A stretch of 64,000 nucleotides of DNA. It comes from an uncultured Clostridia bacterium. Its GTDB lineage: Bacteria > Bacillota > Clostridia > TANB77 > CAG-465. Shown piece by piece: positions 11,571 to 26,415 of this stretch; within the stretch, counting starts at the first letter, position 1, and the number at the start of each line of letters is the position of its first letter. The notes under the pieces were generated by a model. The model was not told the origin of the DNA, did no database searches, and worked only from the letters and a program-made list of their open reading frames with translations. The stretch covers positions 501-64,500 of the forward strand of contig CALXJG010000004.1 in assembly GCA_944388565.1 (NCBI GenBank), written 5' to 3'. The position numbers and the translations under genes were made by a program.

Positions 11571-11619
11571 TAAAAAACAACAAATCTATTATAAATTTTG
11601 TTAAATAATTATATAAAAT

Positions 11620-11665
11620 ACCTTTAATTAGCATATATGTTAGTTAGAGGTGTTTTTTATTTTAA
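11620..11665 (+). terminator. rho-independent terminator after cls
   Basis: ACCTTTAATTA / TAGTTAGAGGT stem (11 bp, including 2 G-U) followed by GTTTTTTATTTT. Confidence 0.6.
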
Positions 11666-11675
11666 TTAAGTTTAA

Positions 11676-11692
11676 ATGCAAAAAAAATGCAT
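11676..11692. promoter_or_regulatory. palindrome ATGCA-N7-TGCAT, copy 1, just upstream of the -35
   Basis: ATGCAAAAAAAATGCAT read directly from the sequence. Confidence 0.4.
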
Positions 11693-11698
11693 ATGTTA

Positions 11699-11727
11699 TT
11701 GACTTTAGCACATAATAATAGTATAAT
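11699..11727 (+). promoter_or_regulatory. sigma-A type promoter of the ATPase/RloB operon
   Basis: TTGACT (11699-11704), 17-nt spacer, TATAAT (11722-11727). Confidence 0.6.
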
Positions 11728-11736
11728 ATTAAAAAA

Positions 11737-11755
11737 CATGCAATAAAATTGCATG
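11737..11755. promoter_or_regulatory. palindrome CATGCAAT-AAA-ATTGCATG (contains ATGCA-N7-TGCAT, copy 2), just downstream of the predicted +1
   Basis: Perfect 8-bp arms, located between the -10 and the RBS AAAGGAG. Could act as a DNA operator or as a 5'-UTR hairpin. Confidence 0.4.
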
Positions 11756-11770
11756 ATGAAAGGAGACGGT

Positions 11771-13075
11771 ATGCTGTTAGAGTTTAAAATGAAAAATTTT
11801 AAATCTTTTAGAAATGAAGTGGATTTTAAAATGACTCCAGCTAGAATAAAAGACTTGGAATATAGTCTAATTACTAAAAAAATAAAAGGAAATGATGTAA
11901 AAGCTTTATCGTCAGCTGCTATATATGGACCAAATTCATCAGGAAAAACAAATTTAATTGGAGGAATGGAAGTATTTCGCTCTATTATATTAAGTGGTAA
12001 TATAATGAATAAAGAAAATAGCATAAGTCCTAATACAGCTGTAAGCAACTTAGAATTAATACCTAATATAAAAAGTAGAAAAAATGAACCTGTAAGTTTT
12101 TATATAAAATTTGTATCTCAAGAATTAATGATAGAATATAAAATTGCAATAGAATTAGGAAAGTTCCTCGAACCTAATTATAACAGAAAGATTGTAGAAG
12201 AAGAATTATACATAAATAATGTATTAATATATGAAAGAAATAGTCAATTAAAAATAGGAAAAATAGAAGAAATAAAAGAATATCTTATAGAGAACTTTTC
12301 AAATGATGCGGCAGAAAAAATTTCCAAAACAAATTTAGATGATAAGGAATTATTCTTAAATGGAATGTTTAAAACATTATATAGTAAGAAAATATATGAT
12401 ATTATTTATGAATGGTTTAAAGAAAAGTTTAGAATTATATATCATGCCGACAAAATGCAAATTTTACCAATTATATCTAATAATAACAATGATAAAAAAT
12501 ATTATATAGATAAGACATTAAATAAAGCCTTAAATGATTTTGGGCTAACGTCAAGAAGCATTGCATATCCAATAAATAACGATAAAGAACAAACAGATCC
12601 ACTTTCAATAATTGAATTAGATGATGGAAATGTTATTTTACCAGCTGAAGTCTTTGAATCATTTGGTACTATTAGATTTTTAAATGTTTTTCCATTAATT
12701 ATCATGGCTATAAAAAAAGGGATAACATTAGTTATTGACGAACTAGATGCTTCAATTCATCCTATGGCAATTATGAATATTATTAATATTTTTCATAATG
12801 ATGAAATTAATAAAAAAGGAGCACAATTAATTTTTAATACACATAATCCAATATTTTTAAATAATTCTTTATTAAGAAGAGATGAGATAAAATTTGTTGA
12901 AAAAGAACTTAATGGTAGTATACATTATTCATTATCGGATTTTAAAACTAATGGAGAAAAAGGTGTAAGAAACTCTGAAGACTATATGAAAAACTATTTT
13001 ATTAACAAATATGGAGCAATAAGAAATATTGATTTTTCAAATGTTTTTTATAATATGGAAGGAGATGATAAATGA
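11771..13075 (+). CDS. ABC/SMC-like AAA ATPase (AAA_15/AAA_21 type), AbiLi/OLD-ATPase-like
   Basis: 434 aa from the ATG at 11771 (AGGAGA RBS; the ORF track starts 18 nt earlier). Walker A GPNSSGKT, long helical insert, Walker B LVIDELDASIHP and H-loop FNTHNP. Confidence 0.85.
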   Translation: MLLEFKMKNFKSFRNEVDFKMTPARIKDLEYSLITKKIKGNDVKALSSAAIYGPNSSGKTNLIGGMEVFRSIILSGNIMNKENSISPNTAVSNLELIPNIKSRKNEPVSFYIKFVSQELMIEYKIAIELGKFLEPNYNRKIVEEELYINNVLIYERNSQLKIGKIEEIKEYLIENFSNDAAEKISKTNLDDKELFLNGMFKTLYSKKIYDIIYEWFKEKFRIIYHADKMQILPIISNNNNDKKYYIDKTLNKALNDFGLTSRSIAYPINNDKEQTDPLSIIELDDGNVILPAEVFESFGTIRFLNVFPLIIMAIKKGITLVIDELDASIHPMAIMNIINIFHNDEINKKGAQLIFNTHNPIFLNNSLLRRDEIKFVEKELNGSIHYSLSDFKTNGEKGVRNSEDYMKNYFINKYGAIRNIDFSNVFYNMEGDDK

Positions 13076-13740
13076 TAAGAAAAATATGTAATCAATATTA
13101 TTTATCAGTAGAAGGTGAGACAGAGAAATGGTATTTTGAACATTTGCAAGAGTTGATAAATAATTCTAAAGAAATACCATTTAAAGTTAGTTTTGATATA
13201 AAAGTAAATAAATCAATTATAAGTAGAGCCAAGTCGATACCAGCTATATATCCTACTAAGGCATTTCATATATGCGATTATGAAAGTAATGATAAGGTAC
13301 ATAAGTTACAGTTTGAAAAAATATTAGAAGAGTTAAGAACAGTAAAAAAAATAAATAAAAAAATTAGTTATAAACTAGGGTATAGTAATTTTTCTTTTGA
13401 GTTGTGGATTATTTTGCATAAGAATCAACAAATGAGTCTTGTTAGTCATAGGAAACAATATGTAAAAGGAATTAATAAAGCGTTTAATGAAGATTTTCAG
13501 TTTATTGATGATTATAAGCAGGAGAAAAACTTTAAAAGAATACTTAAGAAGATAACTTTAGAGGATGTTGTTTTAGCAATAAATAATGGAAATAAAATTA
13601 GAACAATGAATAAAGAAAACTCAAAACAAAACTATAGAAAATATGGACAATTTGAATATTACACTAAAAACCCTGATATAACTGTTAATGAATGTGTTGA
13701 ACAAATATTAAAAGAATGCGGTGCAATAAAAAAGAATTAA
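13072..13740 (+). CDS. RloB-like (TOPRIM-like) protein, AbiLii-like partner of the ATPase
   Basis: 222 aa. ATGA start/stop overlap with the ATPase gene. LSVEGETEKWYF, ICDYES and YSNFSFELWIILH match my recollection of the RloB-like pattern (CEGExTExxYF ... SNPCFELWxxLH). Confidence 0.72.
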   Translation: MIRKICNQYYLSVEGETEKWYFEHLQELINNSKEIPFKVSFDIKVNKSIISRAKSIPAIYPTKAFHICDYESNDKVHKLQFEKILEELRTVKKINKKISYKLGYSNFSFELWIILHKNQQMSLVSHRKQYVKGINKAFNEDFQFIDDYKQEKNFKRILKKITLEDVVLAINNGNKIRTMNKENSKQNYRKYGQFEYYTKNPDITVNECVEQILKECGAIKKN

Positions 13741-14630: not shown

Positions 14631-15812
14631 ATGACTAATAAAGTATATAGTAATATAAAACCAGGAGATGGTAAAATAGCATTATCACTTGAAGGTGGTG
14701 GAGCAAGAGGTGCATATCAAATCGGTGCTGTAAAGGCTTTATTTGAAAATGGGTATAAATTTGATGCAATTGTAGGTACTTCTATTGGAGCCATAAATGG
14801 TGCATACATTGCTCAAGGTGATTTTGATAAAATATATTCAATGTGGCAAACTATGTCATTTAAAGATTTATTTGATTTAGATAATGAAGTAATGAAGAGG
14901 ACTTTTGATATAAATCTAGATATTAATTCTATAAAATATTTATCTAAAAAATTAGGAGAAGCATTAAAAAATAAAGGCATGGATACAGAAAAGATGAGAC
15001 AAATATTAGAAGAAGGAATAGATGAAGAAAAAATTAGAAATTCAGATATATTATATGGTCTTGTTACGATGTGTCTTAGCGATATTAATGGTGAAGAAAA
15101 ATATATTGATGAAATTCCAAAAGGAAAGTTAGTTGATTACATAATGGCAAGTGCTAATTTACCAGTTTTTAAAAGGTCAATAATTAATAATAAAAAGTAT
15201 CTAGATGGTGGAGCATGGGATAATTGCCCTGTTCATATGCTAGAGGAAAAAGGATATAATAAAGTAATAGCTATAAGAGCACATAAAAGAATCAGAATAA
15301 GAGATTACAAAAATATAGTAAAAAGAGGTAATATTCTAATTAATATGATTGAACCAATTGATACATTACCTAGCATATTGAATTTTGATACCAATAATTT
15401 AAATTATGAATTAAAGCTTGGCTATTATGATGGCTTAAGATATATAAATAATTATGATGGATTTAGATATTACTTTAGTGATGTAAGTAATGATTATATA
15501 ATACAAAAACTAAATAGTATTTCACCGTTATATTTAGAAAAGTTAGCCAGAAAACTTAAAATAAAACTAATTAAGTCTGAAAATATATTTGATCTTTTAA
15601 CTAAAAAAATAATACCCGAGTTAGTATTAAAAACTAAAGAAAAAAATGTGGAAAGTTTAAAAGATTCAATAATTGCAATTTTAGAGCAAGTATTAAAAGA
15701 TGAGAAAATAGATAAATTTAAAATATATAGTTTTGAAGATGCAGTTTCACTAATAGATGATAAATTATGTGAAAATGATATTCTAAAAGAATTTATATTA
15801 CAATTAAAGTAA
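14631..15812 (+). CDS. patatin-like phospholipase with uncharacterised C-terminal domain
   Basis: 393 aa. Oxyanion GGGARG, nucleophile GTSIGA and catalytic DGG (YLDGGAWDN). About 150 aa of the C-terminus is unassigned. Confidence 0.9.
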   Translation: MTNKVYSNIKPGDGKIALSLEGGGARGAYQIGAVKALFENGYKFDAIVGTSIGAINGAYIAQGDFDKIYSMWQTMSFKDLFDLDNEVMKRTFDINLDINSIKYLSKKLGEALKNKGMDTEKMRQILEEGIDEEKIRNSDILYGLVTMCLSDINGEEKYIDEIPKGKLVDYIMASANLPVFKRSIINNKKYLDGGAWDNCPVHMLEEKGYNKVIAIRAHKRIRIRDYKNIVKRGNILINMIEPIDTLPSILNFDTNNLNYELKLGYYDGLRYINNYDGFRYYFSDVSNDYIIQKLNSISPLYLEKLARKLKIKLIKSENIFDLLTKKIIPELVLKTKEKNVESLKDSIIAILEQVLKDEKIDKFKIYSFEDAVSLIDDKLCENDILKEFILQLK

Positions 15813-26330: not shown

Positions 26331-26415
26331 AGGAAAGCTCTGAGGACGGAACTGGTAGCCGTAGCCCATCGTAAGATGTAGGAGATGTGGGAGTACCACC
26401 CCACCTAGTTTTCCT
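26331..26415 (+). ncRNA. candidate structured RNA element (unknown class) in the 3' region of the PBECR-like gene
   Basis: About 85 nt, visibly GC-rich against AT-rich flanks. Closing helix AGGAAAGCT / AGTTTTCCT (9 bp incl. 1 G-U), ACGG/CCGT hairpin, CATC-GTAA-GATG hairpin with a GNRA loop, and GTGGG/CCCAC hairpin. A terminator follows immediately. Confidence 0.35.

Follow-up and report, generated by a model that had tools for sequence, protein, structure and literature searches.

AbiL, carried by the Lactococcus lactis plasmid pND861 and modelled in PADLOC and DefenseFinder, has already been listed among the systems that combine an AAA_15/21 ATPase with a TOPRIM protein (PMC11464382, PMC10440598, PMC13064643) and is credited with conferring abortive infection (Deng 1999, as cited in PMC13064643). 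Its first gene encodes an AAA_21-type ATP-binding cassette (ABC) ATPase and its second an RloB-family protein. An RloB protein is likewise paired with an ATPase (RloA/RloB) at type I restriction-modification (R-M) loci of Campylobacter jejuni, PARIS joins the ABC ATPase AriA to the DUF4435 Toprim nuclease AriB (for the mechanism see PMC11464382 and PMC12409363), the OLD family (P2 Old, classes 1 and 2; GajA) fuses ATPase and Toprim in one protein, and NetFlax describes AAA (D29):TOPRIM_OLD/RloB (D44) pairs, among them one of Clostridium algidicarnis whose AAA protein neutralises the toxicity of the RloB-type protein in Escherichia coli (PMC10440598). Whether AbiL/RloAB systems act like PARIS is still open according to a 2026 review of lactococcal Abi systems (PMC13064643). 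Here we describe such a two-gene pair, ORF1 and ORF2 (open reading frames 1 and 2), in a 64-kb stretch of chromosomal DNA (hereafter the window) from an uncultured low-GC Clostridium (contig CALXJG010000004.1, positions 501 to 64,500); all coordinates are window positions unless a locus label (L0xx) is given. We consider it fairly probable that this pair is a self-contained, mobile AbiL/RloAB-type defence cassette in which a nuclease is sequestered and released in a PARIS-like or NetFlax-like manner. The two genes and their motifs are the following:

11771-13075, forward strand: ORF1, predicted AbiLi-like ABC (Rad50/SMC/OLD-type) ATPase of 434 amino acids (aa), from Pfam, PADLOC, invariant motifs and an AlphaFold2 model
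11927-11950, forward strand: ORF1 Walker A, G53-T60, with G53...G58-K59 invariant
12656-12670, forward strand: ORF1 signature-like ESFGT, with E296-S297-x-G299 invariant
12725-12760, forward strand: ORF1 Walker B and D-loop, with D323-E324 (catalytic Glu) and D326 invariant
12833-12850, forward strand: ORF1 H-loop, with H358 invariant
13072-13740, forward strand: ORF2, RloB/AbiLii-like, Toprim-like putative nuclease of 222 aa, from Pfam, PADLOC, invariant residues and an AlphaFold2 model
13108-13125, forward strand: ORF2 VEGETE (E14, G15, E18), right after beta1
13276-13284, forward strand: ORF2 D69-Y-E71 (in CDYES), at the end of beta3
13378-13422, forward strand: ORF2 GYSN..ELW..LHK, invariant or near-invariant alignment columns

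Both genes lie on the same strand and overlap through the ATGA at 13072-13075, with coordinates, lengths and overlap as claimed in the first-pass annotation, and the motifs quoted there are all present, on invariant or near-invariant columns of the homologs. They are adjacent and co-oriented behind one conserved promoter, a pairing that is kept at every homolog locus examined; ORF1 and ORF2 are translationally coupled and form a cassette with its own promoter. A longer ORF1 frame from 11753 was dismissed and 11771 taken as the true start, given that the homologs all start with MLLEF, that an AGGAG ribosome-binding site is present at 11761-11765, and that a 1-nt insertion at 11767, found in some strains, would disrupt the longer frame. 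The pair is well beyond a chance ORF, since 82 public contigs encode an identical ORF2 protein and its relatives number in the hundreds (548 by exhaustive phmmer of 1.84 billion representatives); for ORF1, public protein data contain thousands of relatives.

ORF1 aligns with Pfam AAA_21 over the length of the model (positions 2-304 of 304; 86.2 bits, cut-off 27) and matches the PADLOC AbiLi model (PDLC02335) with an E-value of 2.2e-71 and 238.6 bits. The AriA model of PADLOC (PDLC02980) also matches (E 1.8e-22), and the GajA model covers only 42 residues (E 7.5e-5). An NCBIfam scan returned no informative or specific model, just a sub-threshold match to a MADS3 ATPase, and searches of PDB sequences gave nothing usable. 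The motif residues given as invariant in the list were scored across 21 homologs. Structure comparison of the AlphaFold2 model (predicted local distance difference test, pLDDT, 76.8; predicted template modelling score, pTM, 0.81) finds resemblance to Rad50 heads (E ~1e-7), to the class 2 OLD nuclease 6p74 (E 3.6e-6) and to PARIS AriA (8v46_C, E 1.4e-3). Motifs and model together point to ORF1 as a catalytically competent Rad50/SMC/OLD-type ABC ATPase.

ORF2 matches Pfam RloB (PF13707), likewise over the length of the model (positions 1-194 of 195; 56.5 bits, cut-off 31.5), and the PADLOC AbiLii model (PDLC02337, E 3.1e-13), and PF13707 was detected in all of its best 120 relatives (323 with E ≤ 0.001). 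Across 56 diverse relatives, G15, E18, D69, E71, W112, Y130 and P201 are invariant, and E14, Y104, N106, H116 and N200 are at least 90% conserved. The AlphaFold2 model (pLDDT 92.8, pTM 0.91) has a core of beta1-alpha-beta2-alpha-beta3-alpha-beta4 (strands 6-13, 38-45, 62-70 and 98-106) followed by a helical domain, and the beta-alpha elements of this predicted core come in Toprim order. V13-E14-G15 is located at the end of strand 6-13 and D69-Y-E71 at the end of strand 62-70; in the model, VEGETE and D69-x-E71 would thus stand where Toprim domains have their catalytic Glu and their DxD. We therefore describe ORF2 as an RloB-family, Toprim-like, putative metal-dependent nuclease with a predicted E...DxE acidic centre. 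Searches with tblastn found no match to ORF2 among all PLSDB plasmids, which suggests that it belongs to a distinct RloB subfamily, and none among phages.

With Pfam AAA_21 and RloB both above their gathering cut-offs and both PADLOC AbiL models matching, the identity proposed earlier, i.e., an AAA ATPase plus RloB of the AbiL type, is borne out. The further suggestion that the two proteins form a highly diverged subtype missed by current models did not hold, as Pfam and PADLOC capture both and RefSeq annotates such pairs, e.g., naming the same layout on a Clostridium beijerinckii plasmid 'ATP-binding protein' plus 'RloB family protein'. The pair is of the AbiL/RloAB type, an already known family, and existing hidden Markov models call it.

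The likeness to AbiL includes the order of the genes and was established through the PADLOC models; AbiL of L. lactis is plasmid-borne, whereas the window pair is chromosomal. RloA/RloB shares the RloB protein paired with an ATPase, but here no hsd or other R-M genes are nearby, the neighbours being CNNM, tgt, cls, a 230-aa membrane protein, patatin, dpaA and folD. The same two-gene logic, an ATPase with a Toprim-type nuclease, is seen in PARIS, which is the best mechanistic template for the window pair; however, neither Pfam nor PADLOC yields a DUF4435 or AriB match for ORF2 at E ≤ 1, and ORF1 is smaller than AriA and scores far better on AbiLi. In the OLD family we find a Rad50/OLD-like counterpart of ORF1, and the VEGxTE and DxD of P2 Old are in register with ORF2, but ATPase and Toprim are fused there, whereas the window pair consists of separate ORFs with a stop and a restart, and the similarity of ORF2 to the OLD Toprim is below significance. 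The NetFlax pair of C. algidicarnis has the same two domains and is likened to the window cassette by domain content.

On all contigs with an identical ORF2 the neighbourhood reads rpmF ... prfB-CNNM-tgt-cls-[pair]-230 aa-patatin-dpaA-folD-hrcA-grpE-dnaK, and the window copy thus sits in a chromosomal housekeeping slot. Five related species that keep tgt-cls ... dpaA-folD (cls 59-64% identical; Clostridium sp. CAG:465 and similar metagenome-assembled genomes) are devoid of the pair, their slot being empty or occupied by a TnpB-like insertion sequence (IS) gene or a lipoprotein. Within the species, two of the ten places that encode an identical cls protein (L046 and L048) have a 290-aa patatin gene instead of the pair. 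These two match the window at 97.6% until 11658 and again from 13737, i.e., a cassette of 2,078 bp is swapped for a patatin segment of 922 bp. The segments concerned, and the IS genes found in the slot of two of the related species, are:

11659-13736, forward strand: swappable cassette with the promoter region and both genes, 2,078 bp, from the comparison with strains L046 and L048
L046 5945-6866 and L048 3575-4496: patatin replacement segment, in place of window 11659-13736
L010 9749-10921, reverse strand, and L012 9825-10988, forward strand: TnpB/OrfB-like gene in the slot

These swap boundaries agree with the alignment boundaries of cassettes from unrelated genomes, where homology extends from about 11676 to the stop codon of ORF2. 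The patatin-for-cassette swap suggests that the slot between cls and the 230-aa gene is a small hotspot for alternative cargo. The pair is accessory, present in some strains only, and horizontally mobile, in line with the accessory status first proposed for it; comparison of synteny likewise shows that it is not a universally conserved core locus and that the slot varies across related species and strains. As a third component of the system the 230-aa downstream gene was ruled out, as it keeps its place in strains in which the cassette has been exchanged and does not accompany homologous pairs, and tRNA-linked integration was ruled out too, there being no tRNA genes in the window. The 290-aa replacement protein is a patatin-like phospholipase (118 bits to Pfam Patatin) that also matches PADLOC models of CBASS-type phospholipase effectors (E 1e-17). 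The TnpB/OrfB-like genes (IS200/IS605-type, ~390 aa) lie in opposite orientations in the cls-dpaA slot of the two species.

Homologous pairs with 45-80% identity occur in unrelated genomic places. The pair with 80% identity is located between LytR and gpr, another between panD and a deaminase, and those with 70-74% identity are part of serine-recombinase elements that interrupt a Mn-catalase/cotJC-like gene next to cotJA-cotJB. At the latter loci (L029/L030 2043-7006 and L020 1-7125) the pair shares the split cotJC-like gene with a large serine recombinase and an ORF of 45 aa, an arrangement reminiscent of a spore-coat gene interrupted by an intervening element that bears a recombinase; the element of L020 additionally bears an AAA_11/AAA_12 helicase with DUF2726. 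In Eubacterium nodatum ATCC 33099 (L033 672-8138) a 45%-identical pair is found directly upstream of Thoeris ThsA/ThsB, and a further pair lies beside an integrase and a CI-type repressor where a 48-kb viral contig ends (a prophage end). The homologs are thus associated with defence and mobile genes, i.e., beside Thoeris, on serine-recombinase elements and at the end of a prophage. The E. nodatum pair is flanked by an HTH-HipA_C-like gene and by Thoeris (SIR2_2-STALD ThsA plus TIR ThsB), which is followed by DUF3991/Toprim_2 and NikA-like genes; the locus as a whole forms a defence island carried by a conjugative-type element. In one 63%-identical cassette (L031 2689-3994) the gene of the ATPase is broken into pieces of 323 and 122 aa, with RloB intact, a decay pattern opposite to that of the species studied here.

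The first-pass annotation also placed the pair behind a cls terminator and under a TTGACT-17-TATAAT promoter of its own, and both were recovered, together with two dyad motifs:

11615-11656, forward strand: terminator-like hairpin 3' of cls (terminator scan), left flank, outside the cassette
11676-11692, no strand assigned: dyad motif 1, ATGCA-N7-TGCAT (WTGCA-N6-WTGCA type), just 5' of the -35 element, position conserved in 7 copies
11699-11727, forward strand: sigma-70-type promoter TTGACT-17-TATAAT, 11 of 12 positions matching, top promoter-like site of the region
11737-11755, forward strand: dyad motif 2, CATGCAAT-AAA-ATTGCATG, between the -10 element and the ribosome-binding site

The hairpin is kept in strains with the patatin allele (homology there extends to 11658). 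Promoter-like sites in this AT-rich region are in total no more numerous than expected by chance, and the promoter is credible owing to its conservation in homologous cassettes elsewhere: the -35 and -10 hexamers are invariant or near-invariant in seven cassettes from unrelated contexts. These seven copies, down to 45% protein identity, have the same upstream layout of dyad, -35, -10 and second dyad. Within the 64 kb of the window WTGCA-N6-WTGCA occurs just twice, both times at the cassette promoter, with 0.84 matches expected. The consensus stem of the second dyad comprises 9 pairs, 3 of which show compensatory changes among the seven copies, and this dyad could be either an operator or a 5'-leader hairpin, both being candidates. 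No riboswitch or known RNA was detected in the leader, where no Rfam family matched even at E ≤ 1. A sigma-54 promoter reading of TTGCA-N6-TTGCA is excluded by the sequence, as the GG of the -24 element, which is obligatory in sigma-54 promoters, is missing.

ORF2 is broken in a considerable part of the population. Among members of its 90%-identity cluster, truncated forms (e.g., at loci L022-L026) are encoded on many long Illumina contigs on which the ATPase stays at 434 aa, and a rough count over 15 listed cluster members gives 147 contigs with an intact and 83 with a broken ORF2 (83/230, about one third). The lesions centre on one tract and on the start codon:

13344-13351, forward strand: A8 homopolymer in ORF2 (codons 91-94), a length-variable mutational hotspot

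Extension to A9 (L022-L024) leads to a 95-aa product, contraction to A7 is inferred from P0125 for a 93-aa form, a change of the start codon (13072-13074) from ATG to ATA gives a 198-aa call and keeps the stop of the ATPase (TGA to TAA), and forms with both lesions (A-tract plus start codon) have 71 aa. The A8 tract is the sole coding homopolymer of at least 8 nt in the ten surrounding genes, and among their 16 coding tracts of at least 7 nt it is the only one in which length varies. Two A9 alleles are found on distant single-nucleotide polymorphism (SNP) backgrounds, suggesting that slippage arose more than once or spread by recombination, and the ATA alleles form one clade. In homologous cassettes the A-run is interrupted, so a conserved, evolved phase-variation tract was ruled out and the tract regarded as a lineage-specific hotspot, not a conserved switch. 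Independent OFF alleles (A7, A9, ATG to ATA) strike ORF2 alone, which is most simply read as the repeated disarming of a costly effector, with selection acting separately on ORF2. This reading is in keeping with reports that RloB-type proteins behave like toxins (PMC3985639, PMC10440598).

We postulate a mode of action modelled on PARIS (AriA/AriB) and on the NetFlax AAA:RloB pairs. An oligomer of the ORF1 ATPase would bind the ORF2 nuclease and hold it inactive, the ATPase would sense a phage-derived trigger and then release or activate the nuclease, and the latter could cut an essential nucleic acid (tRNA, other RNA, or DNA) and thereby abort the infection. Cleavage of tRNA has been reported for P2 Old and AriB (PMC12445682, PMC12409363), and DNA nicking for class 1 and 2 OLD proteins and GajA (PMC12392090, PMC10568477). 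AbiLii of Fusobacterium nucleatum is toxic in E. coli (PMC3985639). Complex formation, trigger, substrate and phage phenotype of the window pair we infer only, by analogy with these systems.

Several points weigh against this interpretation. The putative anti-phage role is derived from homology and genomic association. The ORF2 subfamily has DxE, acidic and non-canonical, instead of the Toprim DxD, which is present in a canonical RloB, that of C. beijerinckii (TEGTETE and FDKDD). The earlier claim of RloB/TOPRIM similarity for ORF2 stands for RloB and is weak for Toprim: Foldseek gave no PDB match to the ORF2 model at E ≤ 1e-3, its weak matches being to the OLD C-terminal Toprim region 6nk8 (E 0.018, TM 0.35-0.38) and to AriB (E 0.085), with Toprim entries scattered among spurious matches, e.g., to TIR, lumazine synthase and HGPRT. 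Searches of PDB sequences with ORF2 and with a profile of 56 ORF2 sequences found nothing. In favour of Toprim, Pfam OLD-like_TOPRIM (PF20469) is weakly matched by 13 of the 56 relatives (best E 0.0021), other secondary families recurring in at most 3 of them, and hhalign places VEGETE and CDYES in register with LLVEGKTE and DCD of the P2 Old Toprim at E 0.0024 and a probability of 12%. The statistical support for ORF2 as a Toprim protein is thus weak yet consistent, and the structural similarity is not significant. In one test F. nucleatum AbiLi failed to neutralise AbiLii (PMC3985639), which suggests that sequester-and-release may not hold for all members. Finally, the frequent OFF alleles could equally reflect decay in this species.

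The recurrent, natural knock-out of ORF2 alone also bears on whether the pair might instead work in the manner of Gabija or OLD, as a stable ATPase-RloB complex that nicks or degrades invading DNA under the control of ATP or nucleoside triphosphate (NTP) levels, with neither a released toxin nor abortive death. Such a complex would agree with the ORF1 model being closer to the class 2 OLD nuclease 6p74 than to AriA, with OLD C-terminal regions being the best Toprim-type Foldseek matches of ORF2, and with the DNA-nicking activity reported for class 1/2 OLD proteins and GajA (PMC12392090, PMC10568477). However, the ORF2-only lesions fit a self-toxic effector better than a nuclease specific for foreign DNA, RloB-type partners are toxic when expressed alone (PMC3985639, PMC10440598), and P2 Old, itself of the OLD family, is, like AriB, a reported tRNA cutter (PMC12445682, PMC12409363), and we consider this explanation unlikely.

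The pair might also be a selfish toxin-antitoxin (addiction) module that stabilises itself or its carrier element and plays no role in phage defence. NetFlax does rank AAA (D29):RloB (D44) pairs as type II toxin-antitoxin systems, with one validated by neutralisation of toxicity (PMC10440598), homologs travel on recombinase elements and conjugative-type islands, and the dyads that flank the promoter resemble toxin-antitoxin-style autoregulation sites. We nevertheless regard a purely selfish module as improbable, given that the founding AbiL gives phage resistance, that the pair adjoins Thoeris in E. nodatum, that the window copy resides in a housekeeping slot with no element to stabilise, and that an ATPase of 434 aa whose catalytic motifs are fully conserved exceeds the needs of a simple antitoxin. 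Lastly, the window copy might be a remnant without current function, acquired once, no longer useful and in the process of being lost, as could be suspected from the broken ORF2 of the listed cluster members, from the different gene in the slot of some strains and from the split ATPase of L031. This appears very unlikely, however, since the window copy has two undamaged genes together with an intact promoter and intact ribosome-binding sites, the differences between strains in ORF1 are mostly synonymous (e.g., 19 synonymous to 4 non-synonymous), and the intact 222-aa ORF2 protein is identical on its 82 contigs across differing SNP backgrounds.

Elsewhere in the window, a second patatin-like protein (393 aa, 14631-15812) matches PADLOC phospholipase effector models (E 1.9e-12); its gene is syntenic in a related species (L013), and it is thus probably housekeeping and not defence. 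One contig of the same species (L006; 6852-8700 and 10669-11018) has no called cls gene, and a deletion of ~540 bp has removed from it the gene of the 230-aa membrane protein that follows the pair. The sole Rfam match above threshold in the window is a skipping-rope RNA (RF02924) at 26335-26411 on the forward strand (44.8 bits, gathering score 36.7).

As genome annotation the result is routine and leaves the knowledge of defence systems unchanged. What it adds is modest, i.e., a precise cassette swap, effector-only OFF alleles and conserved dyads, and not a new type of system. It is a doubtful, though conceivable, proposition that the A8 tract serves as a reversible ON/OFF switch and, at the same time, the dyads as operators bound by the ATPase-nuclease complex (autoregulation). 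If the former were true, a population of gut Clostridium would hedge between an armed, self-toxic nuclease and a disarmed state in which the ATPase is kept; if the latter, autoregulation would proceed without a classical DNA-binding domain; and if both, the DxE-type RloB subfamily would represent a regulated, switchable variant of AbiL. AbiL/RloAB systems are widespread, and it has yet to be established what triggers them, what they act on and how they are controlled (PMC13064643). Owing to its compactness (2.08 kb, with its own promoter and sharp natural boundaries) and to the natural OFF and replacement alleles available in the same species, the cassette offers a handy entry point for asking whether RloB-type effectors work like AriB of PARIS.

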